DNA from: a virus
Length of the DNA: 64,000 nt
Reading direction: 5' to 3' (one strand)
Virus record (IMG/VR): IMGVR_UViG_3300044620_000592
Location: 1 to 64,000 of that record
Part shown: one piece after another, positions 48,775 through 60,098 of the stretch
Layout of the letters: every line of letters begins with the position of its first letter
How positions within the stretch are numbered: the stretch's first letter is position 1
Program-made: the position numbers and the translations under genes
Notes under the pieces: model-generated
The model's input: the letters and a program-made list of their open reading frames with translations, nothing else
What the model was told of the DNA's origin: nothing
The model's database searches: none

Positions 48775-49135
48775 CCACCCTTCTTGTAGTGATTAGATAA
48801 TGATGTAATTTGCCTTTATAGCCCATGTACTTGCGAATGCTTATAATCTCTAATGGTCCAGACTCAAGGACAACCCCGGCTCTATCCACGACATTTTGAA
48901 TCCGATTGTTGTAAGTAATATACTGAGCATCTTGGTGTGAGACATAAAACTCATACTGATCAATGTTGTCAATATATGGCTCAATTCTTCTTTCGCTTCG
49001 CTGGGATTGGAATACCGCAGGTATCGTAGCAGCCTTGCTAAAAGTTATTGTCTTTTGACCAGCAGCATTATTACTGGTTATTTTTTCGTATACATCAATC
49101 TTGTGTACAAATCTTAAATAAGTTTTTGCACTCAT
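48761..49135 (-). CDS. Head-closure (stopper) protein
   Basis: Size, synteny, SPP1 gp16-like beta pattern. Confidence 0.6.
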   Translation of the reverse strand: MSAKTYLRFVHKIDVYEKITSNNAAGQKTITFSKAATIPAVFQSQRSERRIEPYIDNIDQYEFYVSHQDAQYITYNNRIQNVVDRAGVVLESGPLEIISIRKYMGYKGKLHHYLITTRRVVENV

Positions 49136-50046
49136 TAGACAACATAATCCATCACAAACAATGTGTAATCCATAAGCAGAACATCAGCCTCGATGTTCCC
49201 AGTTGTCTCATAGAAAGAGTCTTTCATGTAAACAGTAAGAGCATCCATTTCAACTCTTGTCATGCCATGCATTCTGTATTCCGAATCATTATTCATTGCA
49301 TCGGCAATCAGCAAAGAAGCGGCCTGCTTAACATTGTCGGGAATAAATCTCCAGCCAAAGTTGCCAATAATCTGGTATGTAGAGTCAAGATCCCATTTGC
49401 CCAAAACAAAGACTTGCTCTGGCAGGGATGTCTTCCTAAAGCGGATGTTATAGGTTGTATCAAAATTGAAAGGCTGTCTTACCTTCTCAACTTTATCAAC
49501 CGTTTCACTAAGAAGGATTAATTCATCGCTTGTTCCAAAGTCTTGGATAACAGATACTAGATCAGAAACCGGAATTGGGAGTCTCATGCTCGAATAGTTA
49601 TTGCCATTCATCAGCAAGGTTTTATTTTCATAATATTCAAAAGACTGTCCACAGTAGGTGTCAATTGTATTTTTTACCCTTTTGGCAATTGCCTCAAACT
49701 TGGACTCAAATTCATTCTCAAGCTCTGGATATTCATCAAAGAACTCAGCTGCCGTAATGTAGGGGGTAAAGACATTGATGTACTTAGATTGGGTGTATGT
49801 CACCCCAGAAACCGCATAGGTGAAATCAGCCTTGTAACGCCCTGAGGAATTTAAAATATAGATTCCAGAGCTTTGTTGACCAAAGGTGATTGTATAAACC
49901 CCTGTGCCTGTTCTGGTGGCGCTGGTTGGTCCTGAAACCAAATCCCCAAGCTCATGATACAGGGATACCGATACCAGATTTGATGTTGGGTCACTTGGTA
50001 GCGTTAGCGTAAGGGTTTTAGATGTGTTGATCTTTACTTCATCCAT
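49135..50046 (-). CDS. Head-to-tail adaptor with N-terminal Ig-like domain
   Basis: IDTYCGQSF...GW..IPDNVKQAASLL...TGNIEADVLL. Confidence 0.75.
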   Translation of the reverse strand: MDEVKINTSKTLTLTLPSDPTSNLVSVSLYHELGDLVSGPTSATRTGTGVYTITFGQQSSGIYILNSSGRYKADFTYAVSGVTYTQSKYINVFTPYITAAEFFDEYPELENEFESKFEAIAKRVKNTIDTYCGQSFEYYENKTLLMNGNNYSSMRLPIPVSDLVSVIQDFGTSDELILLSETVDKVEKVRQPFNFDTTYNIRFRKTSLPEQVFVLGKWDLDSTYQIIGNFGWRFIPDNVKQAASLLIADAMNNDSEYRMHGMTRVEMDALTVYMKDSFYETTGNIEADVLLMDYTLFVMDYVV

Positions 50047-50087: not shown

Positions 50088-50378
50088 TCAAAACCCCCAA
50101 AAATGTTTCAATATCGATAAACTTGCCAAAACCACCCAAGCGACATTGAAAAGGATGATTGTTGGAAGGGTCTTGCGTGTTGAAGTCCAAATAAGAGCAA
50201 CGCTGGAAATGATGGCAAAAATATATAACCACCAGAATTGCTTGCCGAGAAGAAGCCCTGGGAAGATAATTGCAATCTTGGTAGCAAAGCCACAAGCCTC
50301 TACTGTATTAACACTTGTCCAGTATGAGCGATTACTCATGGTCTTGACAGCATTAATTATTTTTTGAAAAAATTCCAT
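50088..50378 (-). CDS. Small multi-TM membrane protein
   Basis: Three hydrophobic segments. Confidence 0.65.
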   Translation of the reverse strand: MEFFQKIINAVKTMSNRSYWTSVNTVEACGFATKIAIIFPGLLLGKQFWWLYIFAIISSVALIWTSTRKTLPTIILFNVAWVVLASLSILKHFWGF

Positions 50379-51166
50379 TTTTTATTTTCTTTTTCTAAAA
50401 TTTCTAAGTCTGTTGATTTTTGTTTTTTTCTATAAAACAAATTTCTATCAGGGGCAATCAAAGAACCTTCTCCAAGTCCTGAAGCCTCTAAGAATCTACT
50501 ATAACTCTCATTACCCCAAACAATTCTCTTAAAAGAATCACGCCTAGTGATGGGAACAAGGTATTGCATCGGAGTTCCTGCGGGGATAGTGAATTCCTTA
50601 TCTGTGGTTATGTTCAACACAACATGTATGTGATGGTAATAATCTGTATGCACAACCCCAGGTACAACCGTGTAGTTAGGATTTGGCTCATGCAACATTG
50701 GCAATGCCATTAATGAAACACCTTTGTGAGTAATATAAAGCCAAGGGGAAACCAGTTTGGGGTATTGCGCCGTTGGTATTTTCTTCAGAGTTGAGAACGG
50801 ACATCCTTCAGAACTTTCATTATCAAATCCTTCAACTGCAAATCCCTTATCCCCATACCTAGACAGTTTTAACTCAAAACGCTTGCCATCAATTGCTGGC
50901 CTTACCGTAACATCTGTCCATAGGGGGATGACAATTCCATGAGTTATATAATCATACGTTCCTTGGCATCGTCTAATTGAACCTTTTTTCTTTGAAAGAT
51001 TTTTCCACCATGAGGGGAGCTGACTCCAAGGGAGGTATGGGGGCAGATGCATCAAACGATTATCAGTAGGAATGACAACAATCTCACCACGCTTGGGCTT
51101 AGGAATGTCTTTTTTATATTGAATAATTTTATATTTGTATTTGCCTGAGCGCCTCAGCATGATCAA
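50357..51166 (-). CDS. Conserved hypothetical protein (beta-rich, possibly dUTPase-like fold)
   Basis: PSWWK...RCQG.YDY...KLVSPW...PGVVHTD...IPAGTP; type recalled beside oxygenases in aquatic phages. Confidence 0.6.
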   Translation of the reverse strand: MIMLRRSGKYKYKIIQYKKDIPKPKRGEIVVIPTDNRLMHLPPYLPWSQLPSWWKNLSKKKGSIRRCQGTYDYITHGIVIPLWTDVTVRPAIDGKRFELKLSRYGDKGFAVEGFDNESSEGCPFSTLKKIPTAQYPKLVSPWLYITHKGVSLMALPMLHEPNPNYTVVPGVVHTDYYHHIHVVLNITTDKEFTIPAGTPMQYLVPITRRDSFKRIVWGNESYSRFLEASGLGEGSLIAPDRNLFYRKKQKSTDLEILEKENKKWNFFKK

Positions 51167-52589
51167 CCTTTGCTTGTGATGTTTGGTCTAGTTTAATATC
51201 AGAAATCAATTTATGAACATATTCTTCTGTTCCGTATGCTTTTATCATTTCTCTAGCCTTTTTTGCTGAGAGCAGTTTTTGACCTTGAGCGACATGGTAA
51301 AAATGAGGAACCAAAAACATTTCATAATTGACCGATGGGATATCATACAAGAAAGGAGGTCTCTCTTGCCATAGTTCTAAAAGATTTGTTAAATACCCTG
51401 GCTTCTTCATTAACTTTTGCTGTCTCCACATTGGGGTATCATCTCTATCTGAGATGTAATGAAGGGATATCATTGCCAATATATTTTCCATCATCATATT
51501 CATCTTATTGTTATAATCTTCTTCTATCTTCTTAGAGCCGTGATTATAAGTACTCAAGTTATGCATTAAGTATCTTGCTTGTTGGATTGTTGAGCCAATA
51601 GATGTTGCCTCAATAGGTTCAACAAAAGCAGCAGCAAGACCTACTGCTACGCAATTCTTTGACCAGAATTTCTTCAAGTGACCAGGATCAAATTTAAAAC
51701 TTCTTTTTGGTTCAACTTCACGACCTAAAAGTTCAGACACTTCTCTAACTGCTTGATCATCGGTGCAGTGATTTGAAGAATAGATATATCCATTACCCCT
51801 TCTGTCTTGAGTTGGTATTTCAAAGACCCATCCATTGGCTATTGCTCTTGCCCTTGTGTATGGTCTAATCTGACCGGAAGGGTCACTTTCAGTTGGGAAA
51901 GCTATTGCAGAATCCATTTGTAGATAATCTTTATAAGAAACCCATTCGGTATTGCCAATCTCTGACATCAGAGTTCTTTTAAAGCCTGTAGCGTCAATCC
52001 AGAAATCAGACTCAAAAGCCTCAAGATTATCTAGAACAACAGAATCGATATATCCACTTTCTGGATTTAAATTAACCTTAATCACTTCTGCGTCAATTAT
52101 TTTAATATTTCTAATAACGCACAATTCAGATAAATAATTATTCAAAGCAAAAGTATCAAAATGGAATTGATTTACTGATTGATGAGGATGGTTTGCATTT
52201 ATTTTATTTTCAATAATTCCTCTAGAGATCATATTTTCAGTCAGAGTTTTTCCGTCTTGGATCAATCCGTTATAGGCAGCATAATATCCAACAGGCTCAT
52301 GAACTTCAGTCCTTGAAACACTGTGGATATAGTCAGGGGTATGATTAGTCCAGTTCTCAAAACGAATACCGTATTTATGAGTAGCTCGCGATTTAACAAT
52401 CATCTCTCCAAGCGGAATATCGCAAATGTCCATAAACATGCGCCAGTGCTCAGTTGAGCCTTCGCCAACCCCAACTATGCCAATTTTAGAAGAAGATATC
52501 ATATTTATCTCCCTAAATGGGAATGCTTTTCTTAACATTAATGCAGTAACAAGCCCAGCCGTTCCGCTACCTACAATTGTTATTTTCAC
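51129..52589 (-). CDS. Tryptophan-halogenase-family flavin-dependent enzyme
   Basis: GSGTAG, GVGEGS, ATHKYGIRF (catalytic Lys position), DATGF, WVFEIP, FVEPIEATSI. Confidence 0.88.
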   Translation of the reverse strand: MKITIVGSGTAGLVTALMLRKAFPFREINMISSSKIGIVGVGEGSTEHWRMFMDICDIPLGEMIVKSRATHKYGIRFENWTNHTPDYIHSVSRTEVHEPVGYYAAYNGLIQDGKTLTENMISRGIIENKINANHPHQSVNQFHFDTFALNNYLSELCVIRNIKIIDAEVIKVNLNPESGYIDSVVLDNLEAFESDFWIDATGFKRTLMSEIGNTEWVSYKDYLQMDSAIAFPTESDPSGQIRPYTRARAIANGWVFEIPTQDRRGNGYIYSSNHCTDDQAVREVSELLGREVEPKRSFKFDPGHLKKFWSKNCVAVGLAAAFVEPIEATSIGSTIQQARYLMHNLSTYNHGSKKIEEDYNNKMNMMMENILAMISLHYISDRDDTPMWRQQKLMKKPGYLTNLLELWQERPPFLYDIPSVNYEMFLVPHFYHVAQGQKLLSAKKAREMIKAYGTEEYVHKLISDIKLDQTSQAKVDHAEALRQIQI

Positions 52590-53647
52590 AAATAAATCAA
52601 CCTTTCTATTGCAAGATTTGGATCAATTGCATAATCATCTTTATTATAACCTTTCGGACCCCTTATATCTTCAAGAAGATCAAAAAACCCTTTGCTTTCT
52701 GTATCAATATCATTTGCAAAACAGAATTGGTATACAACCTGTTCACAAATTCTTTTTTCTTCTTCAAGAATAGAGGAGGGAATTTGTGGTTTTTGTGGAT
52801 GGTTTAAAAACAAAGTGTTCAGCGACTTATATCTGCATTTATTATAGATATATTCTTTAAGAGATTCAGGCTCTTCAAAATTTTCGAATGGAATACTGGC
52901 TGAAAAATCAATTCCTTTTATATACCTAGCCAACTGCATATCAGGCTGTGAGGAAAGAATCTCCTCAAGAGTCTCTTGAGGCATATCGAGAGATTCCAAA
53001 AGCTTAACGGCTGCTAGGGCGATTTCCTCTGTGTTGTTGAATGGTTCTTTAGTTGACTCTGCCCATTCATGGATTAATTTAAACATCCCAGAAAGAGTTC
53101 GTGAACCAGAATACAAACTATGATGATCTGCATTTTTATTTTCTGTAGCTGTTGTTTCAAGTCTTGCAATATGGCCAATACCGCTAAAGTTTAAAATATT
53201 AAAAACTTTGGTATATGTGTACTGATTAGGAGCTGGCTCAAATGTAATACCGCCATACCTACCTGCATCACACCTTGTAAAATTAAATCTATTCACTTCA
53301 CTTCCATAATTTGAAGGAACAACACCGGAATTGGCAAAAATATAAAAATTAAATTTATCTAAACTTTTATTATTAAAAGTAGTAGCGCAATCTTCATATG
53401 TTGTTAGTTCAATAGGTCTAATTTGTTCACCCTTCTTGAAAATACAGTCATGAAAACTAACTGTTGCAAGAGGGTGAAAAGCAACTATTGAACCATTACT
53501 TATCGAAAAAATTTCATAACCAGAATCAAGATTAATATATCCATCTGGGGTGTTGAATTGAACTTCAAAATCATCAGTTAGGTCAGTAAAAGCGTAATAG
53601 TAGTATTTTGTTAAATCAGCTTCAAAGATATTTTTCATATAAACCAC
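52586..53647 (-). CDS. Hypothetical protein
   Basis: 353-aa ORF coupled between oxygenase and halogenase. Confidence 0.7.
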   Translation of the reverse strand: MVYMKNIFEADLTKYYYYAFTDLTDDFEVQFNTPDGYINLDSGYEIFSISNGSIVAFHPLATVSFHDCIFKKGEQIRPIELTTYEDCATTFNNKSLDKFNFYIFANSGVVPSNYGSEVNRFNFTRCDAGRYGGITFEPAPNQYTYTKVFNILNFSGIGHIARLETTATENKNADHHSLYSGSRTLSGMFKLIHEWAESTKEPFNNTEEIALAAVKLLESLDMPQETLEEILSSQPDMQLARYIKGIDFSASIPFENFEEPESLKEYIYNKCRYKSLNTLFLNHPQKPQIPSSILEEEKRICEQVVYQFCFANDIDTESKGFFDLLEDIRGPKGYNKDDYAIDPNLAIERLIYL

Positions 53648-54234
53648 ATTACCATACTATATTTTATACCATTCGTAACAGGGTGAGCTATATGGGTATA
53701 AGGAAAATTAGATGGGAATAAAACTAGACTATTCTTTTCTAATTTAATAGTTTTATTAAAGTATGGGAATTCCAACTCTCCTCCTTCAAAATCCTCACCA
53801 AAACATGCAACAAGGCTTAAAACCCTCTGGTTCTCTGAGCTATGGTCATGATGTGCATGATATTGAGCATTATTCTCATATTTAAGAAGTTGCATTCCAT
53901 CTGCTCCTCTCAAGAATAAATCATAGGATTTTCTATAATCCCAAATACACTGGTCAATTGATAGAAAAATTTTCTTATAAGAATCAGAAATCTCTTTTAT
54001 ATCCTCTACAACTTCATCCTGCAGAAGCGGGGATAAGGGGGCTTCAAGAGAGCTTCTATGTTCTGACTCTTGGGTACCGTAGTCACCCCCATCGCCAGTT
54101 ATAGATCTTTTCCAATCAAGATAGGGCCAAGGTTGTTGCGCTTGTTCTTCGAATTTTTCTATGAAGTTCCCAACATCAAAATAGTTTTTGTAAATCCAAA
54201 CGGCTGGCATTTCTTCTATTTTTTCAATCAACAT
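53635..54234 (-). CDS. 2OG-Fe(II) oxygenase (prolyl-4-hydroxylase-like)
   Basis: LLKY...HHD, FEGGEL.F, LFPSNFPYTH...PVTNGIKYS. Confidence 0.9.
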   Translation of the reverse strand: MLIEKIEEMPAVWIYKNYFDVGNFIEKFEEQAQQPWPYLDWKRSITGDGGDYGTQESEHRSSLEAPLSPLLQDEVVEDIKEISDSYKKIFLSIDQCIWDYRKSYDLFLRGADGMQLLKYENNAQYHAHHDHSSENQRVLSLVACFGEDFEGGELEFPYFNKTIKLEKNSLVLFPSNFPYTHIAHPVTNGIKYSMVMWFI

Positions 54235-54625
54235 TATAACTAAAACTTTCTAATATGTTATTATTTTGAATAATATTACAATTCTTAATTCCACTAAGGT
54301 TCTCTAAAATTAAGAATCTAGCTTTATGCTTTTCACAAAGAATAGGTCTATATTCAACTTTATTTACTTCTAATAAAATACCTTTATTAAATGAAATAAA
54401 ATCATTTTCATAAGATACTACTTGATGAAAATGTTTTTTTGCATTTTTATTATAAAAAATATAATTATTTTCTGGGACTTCCAGCACTTGAGATTTGGTT
54501 CTATCAAAATCTAGATTTTTAATTCCATCAAAAAGACCAATGTTTACTGGTAGATTATTGTCTTTAGCCAATATTTGCGCTTCAGCAATATTAGATTCGT
54601 TTGGACAAAAAATTATCCTTCTCAT
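54224..54625 (-). CDS. Hypothetical protein
   Basis: 133-aa AT-rich ORF in operon. Confidence 0.6.
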   Translation of the reverse strand: MRRIIFCPNESNIAEAQILAKDNNLPVNIGLFDGIKNLDFDRTKSQVLEVPENNYIFYNKNAKKHFHQVVSYENDFISFNKGILLEVNKVEYRPILCEKHKARFLILENLSGIKNCNIIQNNNILESFSYNVD

Positions 54626-54626
54626 T

Positions 54627-54860
54627 TTAAAGGTTCGAAATTTTCTCTTTAATTAAGTTATAGCGATTGTACAAAGTAAACAAGCGATACTCATTGCTTG
54701 GCGCTTCTCTTTCTGAGAGGGTACTTATTAGTGATTGGTCATAAGTATCAGGATCTTCACCAATGCTTAAAATTAAATTATAAATACTCATTTCAAGACC
54801 GGTTAAGGTAGATTCAAGAGCTTGCCTTTTTTGCTCATTTGTTAGTGAAAAATTAATCAT
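54627..54860 (-). CDS. Small helical protein (possible fibre chaperone)
   Basis: 77 aa directly after the Gly/His-rich gene. Confidence 0.6.
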   Translation of the reverse strand: MINFSLTNEQKRQALESTLTGLEMSIYNLILSIGEDPDTYDQSLISTLSEREAPSNEYRLFTLYNRYNLIKEKISNL

Positions 54861-54868
54861 TATTACTC

Positions 54869-56392
54869 CTATGCGTTAAGAATGGTAAGAACAGTTCCAT
54901 CACTACCAGACACTCCACTAAGTGTACCACCAGAAACGCTTGTTGTCACGCTTACTGGCTGGGTTTCTGTTAGGATAAGAATTCCTCCACCACCGCCAGA
55001 TCGACCATTGGCACCTGCTGTTGTTGATCCATTTGTTCCGGAAGTTCCTGCAGATCCTGCAGAGCCTCCAGCGCCACCAGATACAGGAAAATGCCCAGTG
55101 TGTCTTGCTGAACCAGCATAGCGATAATCATCATTGCTATGAACACCTTGTTGGTCGTGCCTTCCTCTAGCCTGATGTCCTCCATCTACAGGGTTTCCTT
55201 TAAAATCTACATGGTCTGGGCAGTTGTCATGCTCATGATAATAAACTTCAAAAATTGCTCCGCTTGTGTGAGCATGGTTGTAGGCTGTCCCCCCGCTGTG
55301 ACCGAATGGACCTCCGATTGTATGGTTTAAACCATTTTGATGGAAATAATCAGAAGCCGAAGCTCGCGGATAATGTGTCGTTGAAGCATGCCCATAGGCG
55401 GGAGAAGAACCCCCATGATGATTAGCAGGGTAAAGACATGTAGCGCCATGATGAGTTGTTGTCCAATAACCAAATGCATGATTTGATTGTATAGCGGAGA
55501 CAGGAGTGGTCGGTAATGCAGGGGCGGGAGTGCTGGCATGTGCCCCATGTACACCATCACCAGTTCTGTAATGGGCAATGTTGTCAGTAGTGTAAGAAAG
55601 ATGTTCAGTTGGAGCTGCTGACCCCGGACTTCCTGCTGCTCCATTTGTTGCGCCCGTTCCGGTAGCAGATGAGCCTCCTGTTGAAGCATTTGAACCTCTA
55701 GACATGATAGTACCAGAGCCAGTAATTAATTTGGCAATGACAACAACAACACCGCCCCCTCTTGCTCCTAATCCGCCTGCTGCGGCTGGAGGCGTTGAAC
55801 CAGCAACGCCGTTTGTTCCAGGGGTTCCTGCAGATCCAGGACCGCCAGGTGCCAGTGCATTTCTATTAAGAGTGCCTGCCCCCCCTGGACCTCCTGAAGT
55901 CGCACCAGAGCCATTAGCAGCAGGAGTAACTGTTCCAGCAGCACCAGTTTCTCCACCTGCACCACCTGTGAAAGCATTGAAGTTTCCAGATGCACTTACA
56001 TGACCACCATTTAAAATATTTTCAACATAAGCGCGAACGCTTGAGGAAACTTGTGATGCTGTGTATGTTACACCAGCAGCATTTCCTCCAATTGAGTTTG
56101 TTGTACTTGTTGCAAGAGGAGTTGTTCCAGCAACTGTGCCAGTATTAACAGTTGCTCCAGTATCAATTCCAATAGTTCCATTAAGAGTCAATGTGTTTTT
56201 TACAAAGACTTTAAAACCATTTGTGTTAAGATGAACACTATTGTTTACTGTTAAATTATCGTAATACATATCTCTAGTAAGAGATGTATTTGAGGCAATT
56301 ACAACGGTGCCATCTTGACCGCCTCCATACACAGAGTCATTACCAATTCTTTGAACTTTTGCCGGTGAGTTGTATCTTTCTATGCCAGTCAT
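54869..56392 (-). CDS. Gly-rich virion/fibre protein with His-rich insertion
   Basis: N-terminus paralogous to 56394..57143; GGAGG/GxxG tracts; 24 His in a ~180-aa central segment. Confidence 0.75.
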   Translation of the reverse strand: MTGIERYNSPAKVQRIGNDSVYGGGQDGTVVIASNTSLTRDMYYDNLTVNNSVHLNTNGFKVFVKNTLTLNGTIGIDTGATVNTGTVAGTTPLATSTTNSIGGNAAGVTYTASQVSSSVRAYVENILNGGHVSASGNFNAFTGGAGGETGAAGTVTPAANGSGATSGGPGGAGTLNRNALAPGGPGSAGTPGTNGVAGSTPPAAAGGLGARGGGVVVVIAKLITGSGTIMSRGSNASTGGSSATGTGATNGAAGSPGSAAPTEHLSYTTDNIAHYRTGDGVHGAHASTPAPALPTTPVSAIQSNHAFGYWTTTHHGATCLYPANHHGGSSPAYGHASTTHYPRASASDYFHQNGLNHTIGGPFGHSGGTAYNHAHTSGAIFEVYYHEHDNCPDHVDFKGNPVDGGHQARGRHDQQGVHSNDDYRYAGSARHTGHFPVSGGAGGSAGSAGTSGTNGSTTAGANGRSGGGGGILILTETQPVSVTTSVSGGTLSGVSGSDGTVLTILNA

Positions 56393-56393
56393 A

Positions 56394-57143
56394 TTAAACC
56401 AATTGAGAGTATATCACTGTACCATTGGCACAACCTGTACCACCTGTAACATCAGTTGTAAGACCTGATGGCAATGTTGCACCACTGGAAATAACGATTA
56501 TTACTCCACCGCCTCCTCCACCACTGCCAGCTAAGCCAGCAGCGTCAAAATAAGATGTAGCAGTTGCAGAGATATAACGAGATGCAATAATTAGAACTCC
56601 ACCACCTGCACCGCTAGAACCACCTGCACCACCTCTTAAGAACAGCGGGGTTGTATTGCTTGCATTAAGTACATAGCCTCTTACAGATTGAGTTGGCTGA
56701 TACCAATACCCTGTAAGAGTCGCTGAGTTTGCCAAGTCAGGCTTTACACCAGTGCCTCCTTGTGCAACGGTTGGAGGAGTTGCAGTTTGAGATGCGCTGT
56801 TACCGCCAAGACTATTGGTAACAGCCGTGTTAGTAGCACCGCCTCCTGAAATCGTTCCAGTTCCTGAGAAGCCAGTTGTCATCGTGTAATTATTCGCCGT
56901 TCCAACTCCGATAGTAGAGTTGGAGTTAAGTGTTAAAAGATTCTTTACAAAAACTCTATAACCAGCAGTGTTTAAAACAACATCAGAGTTGACAGTAAGA
57001 TTGTAATAAAACTTATCAGTTGTCAATGTTGTATTAGCAGAAATTGTTACTGTCCCATCAGAGCCAGTTCCATAAATTGGGTCTGGGGCATCGATAAATG
57101 ATCCAAAAGCGTTTAAAGCAGGGAACCTAGATATACCGGCCAT
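56394..57143 (-). CDS. Gly-rich virion/fibre protein
   Basis: YGTGSDGTVTIS...NLTV...VFVKN.LTLN; GGGGGGVII. Confidence 0.7.
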   Translation of the reverse strand: MAGISRFPALNAFGSFIDAPDPIYGTGSDGTVTISANTTLTTDKFYYNLTVNSDVVLNTAGYRVFVKNLLTLNSNSTIGVGTANNYTMTTGFSGTGTISGGGATNTAVTNSLGGNSASQTATPPTVAQGGTGVKPDLANSATLTGYWYQPTQSVRGYVLNASNTTPLFLRGGAGGSSGAGGGVLIIASRYISATATSYFDAAGLAGSGGGGGGVIIVISSGATLPSGLTTDVTGGTGCANGTVIYSQLV

Positions 57144-57502
57144 TATGACTCCTCAACTCCAAAGATTGTCACATTCAATGCAGAGTTTGCAGAGCATAGG
57201 AATGTAATCTGATCACTTGTTGTATTGCTTGCCGTGTTACCATTATTGATTAAAACCATCGAGCAGTTAAAAGCAAGAGTTTCATTAGCATTAATAGTAA
57301 TATTGCTTAAGATATCGTGAGTATTCGCCTCAGCAACATTGAGGGGTTTTAAACGGATTGTTGCAGTTCTTGCAGATGCTGTTGTATTTGTAATAAGAAT
57401 TTGTTTAACGATTGTGGTTGTGTTAAGAGGGACAGTATAAGCAACAGCAGTAACTGTTGATATTTGTGTTGGGCCAGCTAATCTTTTCTGAATTACAGCC
57501 AT
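57143..57502 (-). CDS. Small beta-sandwich virion protein
   Basis: YTVP...VKQILITNTT...GVEES; paralog of 62834..63166. Confidence 0.7.
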   Translation of the reverse strand: MAVIQKRLAGPTQISTVTAVAYTVPLNTTTIVKQILITNTTASARTATIRLKPLNVAEANTHDILSNITINANETLAFNCSMVLINNGNTASNTTSDQITFLCSANSALNVTIFGVEES

Positions 57503-58305
57503 TATATAACCTCCATATAGAATCTGATCATGTTGTCACGAACAGTATTTCTATTTACCCATAAACTACCATTATACTCCAAAACCTCTCCAGAAGATGG
57601 GGAATCGATGCTCACATCATGCATCCATTCAAGGTGATTATTTCCCGGAAGGACTCTGATAACTATTTGACCATTTGAGCTGCCAATGATTGTTACAAAG
57701 GCAACTGCGAAATCATGCTGTGGTTTTACTTTTGTTAATTTTCCTGCAACAGTTGGGTGAGCATAAAGAATATCTCCGGCAGCCCATGTTTCATCTCCAA
57801 CAGCAAGACCGCTAGATACAGTTCCTCTTGTGTCCAAACCACGCAATGTCCCAAAGCTCATTACTTCACCACTTTGACCATCCGTCAAGGTTTGAGTAAG
57901 AATTCCTATTGCCCTAAGTTCCGAATTTTCTGTTCCCGTTGTTTCAAAGGGGACTATGTTAATTCTTCCACTGCCTTCTGCTCCATTAGCGGAAACAAAA
58001 GTTCCTTTTACAATTGTTGAACCACTATCATTCCGAACAAGAAAGGTATTTGGGATACTACTGTTGACCCATTCTGTACCGTCATACATCAGACCTTGAT
58101 AAGTCAAAGGAGTATCTATTACAACATCTGTTAGTTCATCAAGTAACGATGCACCGCCCGAACTTCCGAACTCAACAATTGTATTAGAACTATTTTTATA
58201 ATAAAGTTTTCCATCAGCATAGTTAAGACCCAACTCACCGAATTCAAGGGAAGAGGGGACATTAGAAGCGGTACCTGAATTTTTAATTTTAATGGTATTA
58301 GCCAT
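57502..58305 (-). CDS. Tail fibre-like protein
   Basis: MANTIKIK...PSSLEFGELGLNYADGKLYY; LDELTDV..YDG..WVN repeats. Confidence 0.75.
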   Translation of the reverse strand: MANTIKIKNSGTASNVPSSLEFGELGLNYADGKLYYKNSSNTIVEFGSSGGASLLDELTDVVIDTPLTYQGLMYDGTEWVNSSIPNTFLVRNDSGSTIVKGTFVSANGAEGSGRINIVPFETTGTENSELRAIGILTQTLTDGQSGEVMSFGTLRGLDTRGTVSSGLAVGDETWAAGDILYAHPTVAGKLTKVKPQHDFAVAFVTIIGSSNGQIVIRVLPGNNHLEWMHDVSIDSPSSGEVLEYNGSLWVNRNTVRDNMIRFYMEVI

Positions 58306-60017: not shown

Positions 60018-60098
60018 TTAGCAGTCACATTCCTCGCAACCACAATCGCATTGGTCAACACACTCACAACCGCAAGCACATGTTTTGTTTCTAGACAT
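60018..60098 (-). CDS. Cys-rich metallothionein-like micro-protein (26 aa, not in ORF track)
   Basis: AGGAG RBS 5 nt before ATG; MSRNKTCACGCECVDQCDCGCEECDC, 9 Cys; fills the gap between endolysin and the next gene. Confidence 0.7.
   Translation of the reverse strand: MSRNKTCACGCECVDQCDCGCEECDC

Follow-up and report, generated by a model that had tools for sequence, protein, structure and literature searches.

A 106-kb uncultured lake phage carries, in the 64,000-nucleotide stretch of DNA that we analysed (the window), a removable ten-gene cassette, g119-A-B-C-D-E-(F)-HAL-H-I, in which two Gly-rich proteins are inherited together with a prolyl-4-hydroxylase-like oxygenase and a flavin-dependent halogenase. 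The genes are present, the catalytic residues of both enzymes are intact, and the co-inheritance is all or none. In essentially all relatives with adequate sampling, A and the His-rich B are accompanied by the oxygenase, the halogenase and a third protein, H. This pairing is kept in about 70 related phages, which suggests that the enzymes may chemically modify a protein of the virus particle. Judged from its inheritance, the cassette is a functional, mobile unit. That its enzymes tailor B is the reading that we tentatively favour, with a confidence somewhat short of even. The features are listed in Table 1.

Table 1. Features of the cassette and of the slot in which it lies (positions in the window)
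Feature	Description	Positions	Strand	Match or remark
J	head-tail adaptor, downstream slot boundary	49135..50046	-	phrog_442 at 9e-9
I	96 aa, three hydrophobic segments	50088..50378	-	most conserved cassette protein
H	diverged dUTPase-fold protein	50357..51166	-	phrog_7084 at 5e-28
HAL	flavin-dependent halogenase, BrvH-like	51129..52589	-	PF04820 at 1e-97
F	353 aa	52586..53647	-	inside the run, yet not cassette-specific
E	prolyl-4-hydroxylase-like 2OG-Fe(II) oxygenase	53635..54234	-	PF13640 at 4e-14
D	133 aa	54224..54625	-	conserved gene pair with 2OG oxygenase
C	77 aa, predicted helical	54627..54860	-	no family matches
B	507 aa, A paralogue: beta-solenoid-like scaffold, Gly-X-Y tracts, His-rich insert	54869..56392	-	
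His-rich insert of B	residues 264-434, hypervariable, predicted disordered	55091..55603	-	
Gly-X-Y tract of B	PGGPGSAGTPGTNG, residues 182-195	55808..55849	-	Pro at Y before Gly, candidate prolyl-hydroxylation site
A	249 aa, Gly-rich	56394..57143	-	B-scaffold family by alignment, without His-rich insert
g119	small cassette protein	57143..57502	-	phrog_1276 at 6e-5
f267	fibre-like protein, upstream slot boundary	57502..58305	-	N terminus resembles tail-fibre PHROG N termini

The original prediction had described an unbroken run of closely spaced genes, and this held for all nine ORFs (A, B, C, D, E, F, HAL, H, and I), each of which was confirmed in its place on the minus strand, with junctions of +8 to -38 nt. 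No terminator-like site was found between the genes of the run A to I. The membrane protein that had been expected at the end of the run is also there (I). The cassette comes after the major capsid gene and before the head-tail adaptor, i.e., in the head-fibre position, and A and B are encoded here and not after the tape measure. A fibre-gene setting had been claimed as well; a fibre-like gene, f267, does lie upstream and is kept in sister phages with and without the cassette, but as these upstream genes come after the major capsid gene they may encode head fibres rather than tail fibres.

Several members of the cassette keep constant company. g119 always lies before A and co-occurs with A and B. 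C is present in 43 loci, and in other cassette types the same slot holds small C-related proteins (clusters c21, c41, and c12), a relation based on representative sequences compared by eye. In every arrangement type a 2OG oxygenase gene lies directly downstream of D, and in three loci (L029, L034, and L172) both are missing; family and fold searches with D gave no lead. The 353-aa protein F, counted in the original prediction as part of the run, does lie inside it, but an F-like gene persists beside the adaptor in 6 cassette-less sister loci, indicating that F belongs to the backbone and not to the cassette. Other cassette types have c12 and c9 in place of F. The identity of I across loci is 55 to 97%, mostly above 70%, compared to 30 to 60% for the neighbouring proteins; it has more than 1000 homologues, none of them named and none with a Pfam domain.

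The gene-neighbourhood survey that had been proposed as a check on the original prediction supports a functional link of A and B with the enzymes. Of the distinct A loci, 61 extend 6 kb or more downstream, and HAL is present in all 61; of the 27 HAL loci flanked by 8 kb or more on each side, 26 have both A and a His-rich B. At least five gene orders preserve the linkage, some of them with A and B encoded on the other strand or after the enzymes, and it spans approximately 77 distinct sequence variants, whose halogenases are 42 to 82% identical. Twelve sister loci share the f365-f267...J-K-M-N backbone but have none of A, B, D, E, HAL, H, and I; in them, f267 abuts J or is separated from it by other, unrelated genes. 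g119 is missing from 11 of these 12 loci; the weak match in the remaining one (L201) falls outside the slot, some 6 kb upstream of f365. Co-occurrence in both directions, varied gene orders and joint absence in sisters together point to the functional, mobile unit proposed above.

Related enzymes also occur apart from A and B. One complete 108.7-kb relative (G001) has a block H'-c45-HAL-3x2OG-I about 7 kb from its fibre genes, and no A, no B and no His-rich ORF was found in this genome, so the enzyme block can work without B. The cyanomyoviruses P-SSM2 and S-SCSM2R encode enzymes that are 35 to 38% identical, in AMG-type regions without A/B-like proteins. The claim that the enzymes do not belong to auxiliary metabolism is favoured by the linkage through at least five gene orders, and these distant halogenases among AMG-type genes weigh against it. 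GT4 glycosyltransferase genes often flank copies of the cassette, and some cassettes have a second, short HxH-rich fibre that is preceded by a Phage_tail_APC chaperone.

B is the His-rich paralogue of a Gly-rich protein, as had been proposed. Both of its ends are A-like and enclose an insert of 171 aa with 24 His, 12 Tyr, 1 Trp, and 10 Pro residues. In the AF2 model the insert has a pLDDT below 45, whereas the scaffold blocks 21-170, 191-260, and 441-507 reach mean values of 74 to 97, mostly above 84, with a dip to 51 to 69 at residues 171-190. The best fold matches of B are generic beta-solenoids, with Z scores up to 8.1 that are within background, and the A/B family matches phrog_13336, itself without an assigned function, at 2e-4. 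A has 77 distinct homologues; its N-terminal part of about 50 aa is a widespread module, around which the enzymes are absent in distant phages and MAGs. As a negative control, remote proteins with this domain alone in common had 0 to 1% His and no enzymes nearby.

Over 63 B homologues (344 to 703 aa long), the inserts range from 39 to 232 aa and consist of 22% His, 12% Gly, 8.5% Pro, 4.4% Tyr, and 0.8% Trp. Only a few His columns are conserved, but HxH and HH motifs are abundant, with up to 22 HxH. Trp, which had been listed among the targets, is poorly supported by this composition; many inserts have none. As Trp is nearly absent and Tyr is missing in some clades, His would be the only universal aromatic target. 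Only B, of all ORFs in the window, has Gly-X-Y runs (two, of 6 triplets each) and GxPG sites (four), and the majority consensus of 25 aligned B homologues reads xPGG at the position of PGGPGSAGTPGTNG. These runs do not make B a collagen: it did not match Pfam Collagen (PF01391) at E values up to 0.1, its BFVD matches to viral collagen-like proteins have poor TM-scores, and AF2 folds the runs into the monomer scaffold and not into a collagen helix.

The assignment of E as a P4H-like oxygenase was borne out by a PF13640 score of 53.7 bits (cut-off, 27) and by an intact iron triad and 2OG-binding Lys: its HxD...H...K residues, His127-x-Asp129, His184, and Lys191, align with those of the Bacillus anthracis P4H. 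The nearest solved structure is this collagen P4H (3itq), at 2e-5 and over the C-terminal 90 aa only. Other cassettes have one to five 2OG paralogues, and their number correlates positively with how much Pro the insert contains (rho 0.39) and with how many GxPG sites there are (rho 0.49), both uncorrected for phylogeny. In two cassettes without a 2OG gene and without D, the insert has only 1 or 2 Pro residues. The original prediction took the adjacent fibre to be the substrate of the enzymes; the co-inheritance, the position of B as the only Gly-X-Y ORF and the nearness of E to collagen P4H agree with this, and the enzyme block of G001 does not.

HAL, with about 490 aa, was correctly placed in the Trp halogenase family. 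It scores 328.4 bits against PF04820 (cut-off, 21) over profile positions 1 to 450 of 458, and the FAD motif GxGxxG (GSGTAG, residues 7-12) and the catalytic Lys and Glu are kept. K72 (in ATHKYGIRF) aligns with ATCKLGIRF of BrvH and is the counterpart of PrnA K79, and E327 (in FVEPIEATS) aligns with FLEPLESTS and is the counterpart of PrnA E346. Across 23 homologues, G7, G9, G12, Lys72, Glu324, and Glu327 do not vary. The WxWxIP region reads W254-V-F-E-I-P, with Phe for the second Trp (locus L003 has WMWEIP), and W254, E257, and P259 are invariant. The motif GVGEGSTEHW is invariant and specific to this clade. The nearest solved structure is BrvH (6frl; 4e-55, residues 3-414), and VirX1 (6qgm) matches at 2e-41. 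We rejected a free L-Trp halogenase of the PrnA/RebH type, as the best matches are BrvH and a Xanthomonas enzyme (6y1w) and PrnA and RebH match more weakly, with their best stretch mainly at residues 136-398. Family searches of the cassette gave no flavin reductase, so a host enzyme would have to supply the reduced flavin. Neubauer et al. in 2018 reportedly observed that BrvH halogenates free indole in vitro. To our knowledge, Trp is the target of every characterised peptide halogenase, and we are not aware of a flavin-dependent halogenase with proven activity on His.

H had been listed as a conserved protein without assignment; it is conserved but not featureless. It adjoins HAL in most cassettes and is never more than about 3 kb away from it. 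Its AF2 model (pLDDT 88) matches many dUTPases in Foldseek at 5e-4 to 3e-3, with target TM-scores of 0.55 to 0.73, and a PDB profile search matched it to dUTPase at 6e-4 with a motif III-like GVVhTDY. In the profile alignment GVVhTDYyh is paired with GVVDSDYRG and tPllhl with RIAQ, the region of the motif II Arg/Ser is unaligned and the motif IV Arg/Gln is absent. We do not count H as a dUTPase proper: it has the fold, but it scores 14.2 bits against PF00692 (cut-off, 22) and its catalytic motifs do not agree. The ESM Atlas gave DUF6065 as a lead.

How might these proteins work together? We propose that the cassette would be a self-contained accessory unit, made of two Gly-rich surface appendage proteins, A and B, presumably present in the virion, and their own tailoring enzymes. 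Late in infection, E with its constant partner D would hydroxylate Pro in the Gly-X-Pro-Gly tracts of B and in the Pro-rich parts of its insert. HAL with its neighbour H would then halogenate His, Tyr, or the rare Trp in the disordered His-rich loop, which would be displayed between conserved Gly-rich motifs as a hypervariable, probably metal-binding contact surface. Hydroxylation at the GxP-G sites is the better-supported half of this proposal and halogenation of His or Tyr the speculative one. In its full form, a chemically hardened or tuned appendage whose His-rich loop is Pro-hydroxylated, His/Tyr-halogenated, and metal binding, we consider the proposal improbable. The linkage in both directions, the joint absence in the 12 sister loci, the relation between 2OG number and Pro content, the invariant catalytic residues of HAL and the precedent of RiPP halogenases all count for tailoring of B. 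Counting against it are G001, the scarcity of Trp in the inserts, the short Gly-X-Y runs in a monomer scaffold, the activity reported for BrvH on free indole, the lack of a flavin reductase in the cassette, and the reading of cyanomyovirus halogenase and 2OG clusters as pathways for small molecules or capsule decoration (Iyer et al., PMC7824862).

A functional unit whose enzymes act elsewhere, on a small molecule, a host envelope polymer, or another Gly-rich virion protein, is an explanation that we regard as rather unlikely though still a serious one. B would then depend on the product or activity of these enzymes, which might supply its His-rich loop with a ligand or a metal-loaded cofactor or be needed for its assembly. 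The enzyme block of G001, away from the fibre genes, would fit this. The dependence looks asymmetric, as B is never seen without the enzymes and the enzymes are seen without B. BrvH-like enzymes have open active sites and no known native substrate. Moreover, the best-conserved member of the cassette is the membrane protein I, GT4 genes often flank the cassette, and the cyanophage clusters were taken by Iyer et al. as metabolite or capsule pathways. However, the core cassette has no NRPS, PKS, carbamoyltransferase, or sugar-nucleotide genes with which a scaffold could be built, cassettes whose B is richer in Pro have more 2OG paralogues, and E is nearest to a peptidyl-prolyl hydroxylase.

If there were no functional link at all, the halogenase and oxygenases would be AMG-type morons that share a recombination hot spot with a mobile fibre cassette. 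The cyanomyovirus enzymes in AMG-rich regions and the variability of the f267-J slot, with its unrelated genes in sisters, are compatible with this, but hitchhiking would be expected to decay over the divergence seen here, whereas the linkage persists through all gene orders and variants, the enzymes are present at all 61 A and B loci with adequate sampling, and the junctions are tight or overlapping. We therefore think such chance neighbourhood quite improbable. Slimmer still is the chance that the His-rich loop is an unmodified, metal-coordinating receptor-binding tip, comparable to the HxH iron sites of T4 gp37, and that the enzymes are unrelated to it. The many HxH and HH motifs, the second HxH-rich fibre of some cassettes and the hypervariable insert between conserved Gly-rich motifs, as in gp38-type adhesins, would suit such a tip. 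It would leave the constant presence of the enzymes in B-bearing phages unexplained, however, and the insert is predicted to be disordered and not to have a fibre-tip fold. A metal-binding loop is in any case compatible with tailoring of B.

The natural substrates of phage flavin halogenases such as VirX1, of BrvH-like bacterial enzymes, and of most 2OG oxygenases of aquatic phages are unknown, and the cassette offers a specific, testable candidate that is co-inherited with its enzymes in about 70 distinct phages. So far, virus-encoded tailoring of virions means glycosylation in mycobacteriophages and, in giant viruses, hydroxylation of collagen; modification of B would bring it to tailed phages with a new chemistry, and would provide biocatalysis with a protein-directed halogenase and its recognition partner. 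If, moreover, His or Tyr of B were halogenated, this would be enzymatic protein halogenation for the first time in any virus, by a flavin halogenase with such a protein substrate. The metal-binding contact surface would then resemble Gly/His-rich worm-jaw materials, in composition alone. If B is not modified, the tight linkage would still define a new conserved module, including a membrane protein with more than 1000 unnamed homologues.

Among known systems, the B. anthracis P4H (3itq, 5hv0) is like E in its PF13640 fold and HxD...H...K residues, and the E gene adjoins the gene for a protein with Gly-X-Pro-Gly tracts; it differs in that the similarity is merely 2e-5 and that the Gly-X-Y runs of B are short and unmatched by Pfam Collagen. 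In giant viruses, virus enzymes modify virion-associated collagen-like proteins, and the PBCV-1 P4H and mimivirus L230 are such virus-encoded collagen-modifying enzymes. We are aware of no tailed phage in which a virion protein has been demonstrated to undergo prolyl hydroxylation, and none came up in a full-text literature search. HAL shares PF04820, the FAD motif and the catalytic Lys and Glu with the BrvH/Xcc-type enzymes (6frl, 6y1w) and VirX1, and like BrvH and VirX1 it is of aquatic source and without a known natural substrate. Unlike them, it has the GVGEGSTEHW motif and is tied to Gly/His-rich structural-type proteins and a dUTPase-fold partner, whereas VirX1 and the enzymes of P-SSM2 and S-SCSM2R sit among AMG-type genes. 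RiPP halogenases (SrpI, MibH, ChlH) also have their gene beside that of a ribosomally made substrate, here a candidate one. Flavin-dependent halogenases that act on ribosomal peptides or proteins include SrpI, which uses disordered regions of its precursor for recognition (PMC10858898), and ChlH (10.1101/2025.01.12.632611). All three target Trp, in contrast to the nearly Trp-free inserts of B; B is a large structural-type protein and not a leader-core peptide, and HAL is closer to BrvH than to any of them. A RiPP-type peptide halogenation system was rejected, as B is no short precursor and its insert has so little Trp.

Like the insert of B, the Nereis jaw protein Nvjp-1 is Gly- and His-rich and intrinsically disordered. 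The jaw material is said, by Birkedal et al. in 2006, to be halogenated as well. Nvjp-1 binds Zn (PMC9465683), and structural proteins of sponges contain halogenated His and Tyr (PMC8659048). There is no homology between Nvjp-1 and B; the likeness is one of composition only. With gp38-type phage adhesins B shares the arrangement of conserved Gly-rich motifs around a hypervariable segment, and the receptor-binding domain of PP01 gp38 is a weak fold match (Z 5.5, within background), but the N-terminal domain of B is beta-solenoid-like, and the B gene is part of a head-proximal module and not of the tail tip. Mycobacteriophage virion glycosylation, a proposed or demonstrated decoration of virion proteins by phage enzymes (the proposal is mentioned in PMC11256854), is similar in that the enzymes are encoded near structural genes, and GT4 genes flank many copies of the cassette. 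The chemistry of the cassette would differ, being hydroxylation and halogenation, and the enzymes of the cassette are accompanied by a substrate-like protein of their own.

The cassette that carries the halogenase gene is real, conserved and mobile. The source record is 105.7 kb long and is rated complete by CheckV, the window being its first 64 kb, and every gene of the cassette region lies on the minus strand. The nine ORFs of the original prediction are all present as described, and upstream of them lies g119, a 119-aa gene. The order is g119, A (Gly-rich), B (the paralogue of A with a His-rich insert), C, D, E (2OG oxygenase), F, HAL (halogenase), H and I, with junctions from +8 to -38 nt between g119 and I. 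J, which matches phrog_442 (head-tail adaptor), follows after 41 nt. Promoter- and terminator-like sites within the run did not exceed the shuffle background and lay inside genes. Pfam has no match for A, B, C, D, F or I. A recent foreign insertion was rejected on composition, the GC3 of the cassette genes not being distinct from that of the backbone. Upstream, the order is portal, protease, major capsid protein and head protein, then f365, the fibre-like f267 and the cassette; downstream are J, the tail genes and a tape measure of 3067 aa. With capsid genes on one side and adaptor and tail genes on the other, the cassette therefore sits at the usual site of head decoration or head-fibre genes and not in a tail-tip module. 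A and B had been called fibres; the word is better read as surface appendage, with no location implied.

The HAL-seeded survey gave 80 viral contigs among the matches listed, and on nearly all of these A, a His-rich B, D, H and a 2OG oxygenase occur together. At least five arrangements were seen; in some, A and B follow the enzymes or are encoded on the other strand. An independent survey was seeded with a profile of A, and the best 80 of 342 relatives were examined. After de-duplication, HAL was present in all 61 distinct A loci examined that have at least 6 kb downstream, and the seven A loci without HAL are all cut by contig ends. Conversely, of the 27 de-duplicated HAL loci flanked on each side by at least 8 kb, 26 had A. 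The co-occurrence of the enzymes with His-rich fibre homologues that the original prediction implied held in both directions, with one exception among the HAL loci. D lies directly upstream of the 2OG oxygenase gene as a constant pair, both being missing together in L029, L034 and L172, and H adjoins HAL in most cassettes.

In a survey seeded with J, 12 sister loci had f365-f267 and the backbone genes J-K-M-N, and the whole set of g119, A, B, D, E, HAL, H and I was missing from them. An F-like gene persists in six of the 12. F is therefore a backbone gene, not a member of the enzyme and appendage set, and the remaining genes are gained or lost as a block. The cassette is almost certainly a functional unit. 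A micro-gene for a nine-Cys peptide was considered as its metal partner and rejected; it is present in cassette-less sisters (for example L191, L197 and L204) and so is independent of the cassette. The glycosyltransferase genes that flank many cassettes (see the table) hint that components of the virion or of the host surface may be decorated further by genes of this hot spot.

Coordinates of individual genes in the source record and in surveyed loci
Feature	Position	Observation
Ribonucleotide reductase gene	genome 69272-71344 (L173:10273-12345)	phrog_367, 1e-132; just upstream of portal, head of structural module
I	window 50088-50378	96 aa, three-segment membrane protein; 55-97% identity between cassettes, mostly >70% (neighbouring proteins 30-60%)
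Nine-Cys micro-gene	window 60018-60098	26 codons
Slot protein, cassette-less sister	L191:7690-8832	380 aa, poly-Gly blocks, no His; no accompanying enzymes
f267 homologue, cassette-less sister	L197:8243-9973	576 aa, abuts adaptor gene directly; C-terminal segment, by eye, like intramolecular chaperone of fibre/endosialidase proteins
Poly-Gly protein in A/B slot of G001	L212:1417-2397	326 aa; 35% Gly, 2 GxPG sites
Second, short His-rich fibre-like protein with preceding gene	L050:12332-13643; also L049, L061, L064, L085	in some cassettes; 306-339 aa, with 5-6 HxH motifs in a stretch of about 40 aa; preceded by Phage_tail_APC assembly chaperone (PF16778, 4e-12)
c12 and c9 pair	L033:5404-5652 (c12); L051:9241-9948 (c9)	one cassette type has this pair before HAL in place of F; no Pfam match
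GT4-family glycosyltransferase (cluster c15)	L035:11095-12156 and many other loci	PF00534, 1e-16; often just after cassette
c45	L081:5653-6402 and other loci	alternative cassette member; about 250 aa; by look a distant H paralogue, 13-15% identity; no Pfam match

Distant proteins in other phages and MAGs share just the N-terminal domain of about 50 aa, contain 0-1% His and have no enzymes nearby. Searches of cellular genomes mostly returned this domain of A and B alone and never the enzymes, so no host was identified via prophages. One 3.2-kb MAG contig (L174) has partial matches to g119, A and a B-like protein and is too short to judge the remainder. Among cultured phages there was no homologue of A, only weak matches to H (in S-RIM4 and P-TIM40), and for the halogenase nothing beyond short DNA similarity with cyanomyoviruses. 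D has no usable match in the ESM Atlas and 12 close relatives among 5.8 billion proteins, all without a name, and I has more than 1000 homologues, none annotated. A literature search found no paper on an association of A or B with these enzymes.

Both ends of B resemble A. The AF2 model of B reaches mean pLDDT values of 74-97, mostly >84, in the scaffold (blocks 21-170, 191-260 and 441-507), dips at 171-190, and is at pLDDT <45 for residues 269-432. Foldseek found no match to this model in the PDB below E = 5, and a wide VIA-align search returned generic beta-solenoids alone, with Z within background. Gly-X-Y triplets form two runs of six in B, which also contains four GxPG sites; no other ORF of the 64-kb window has either such runs or such sites, and Pfam Collagen does not match B. 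In a set of 63 homologues the insert is hypervariable, both in sequence and in length (39-232 aa), and constant in composition (His 22%, Gly 12%, Pro 8.5%, Tyr 4.4%, Trp 0.8%), with Tyr missing in some clades.

The best single explanation, which we put forward tentatively, is that the enzymes covalently tailor B, and its prolyl hydroxylation half is better supported than its halogenation half. Cassettes with more P4H-like paralogues (0 to 5 per cassette) tend to have an insert of higher Pro content (rho 0.39, p 0.004) and a larger GxPG count (rho 0.49, p 2e-4); the p-values overstate the evidence because the loci are related. This correlation points at B as the substrate; the two oxygenase-free cassettes have 1-2 Pro in the insert. 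To our knowledge, Trp is the target of every peptide halogenase. The near-absence of Trp from the inserts, where it had been named as a candidate halogenation residue, and the absence of Tyr in some clades argue against B as the substrate, as does the location of cyanomyovirus halogenases among AMG-type genes. Such halogenase clusters have been read by Iyer et al. as metabolite or capsule pathways (PMC7824862).

In the main rival reading, which we rate as somewhat less likely, the enzyme block acts on something other than B, and B depends on that target. A backbone relative, G001 (IMGVR_UViG_3300032315_000979; L072 and L212-L216), complete at 108.7 kb with terminal repeats, has an enzyme block in the order H'-c45-HAL-three PF13640 2OG oxygenases-I; the block precedes the fibre genes, lying about 7 kb upstream. 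Its whole genome has no A, no B and no His-rich ORF, which counts against B as the substrate. The enzymes do occur without B, in G001, whereas B was never without the enzymes among adequately sampled loci, and the dependence is therefore asymmetric. That the enzymes simply hitch-hike with the cassette is unlikely. Tailoring of B remains our preferred reading.

Judged by their conserved catalytic residues, HAL and E look active. HAL is a PF04820 halogenase (1e-97) whose FAD motif, Lys72 and Glu327 are invariant in 23 homologues sharing just 42-82% identity; GVGEGSTEHW is clade-specific and invariant in the same 23, and the WxWxIP motif reads WVFEIP in the window's HAL. H has a confident predicted fold (pLDDT 88), a dUTPase-like barrel. 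Despite this fold we do not class it as a dUTPase, because the Arg-Ser and Arg-Gln motifs are lost and its score is below the Pfam cut-off. The predicted complex of HAL with H scored 0.00, which counts neither for nor against binding. The closest solved structures to HAL are BrvH (6frl, 4e-55) and a Xanthomonas enzyme (6y1w), rather than the free-tryptophan halogenases, and HAL matches VirX1 at 2e-41. E is a PF13640 2OG-Fe(II) oxygenase (4e-14), and its closest solved relative is the collagen prolyl 4-hydroxylase of Bacillus anthracis (2e-5), with which it aligns at the His-x-Asp, the distal His and the 2OG-binding Lys.
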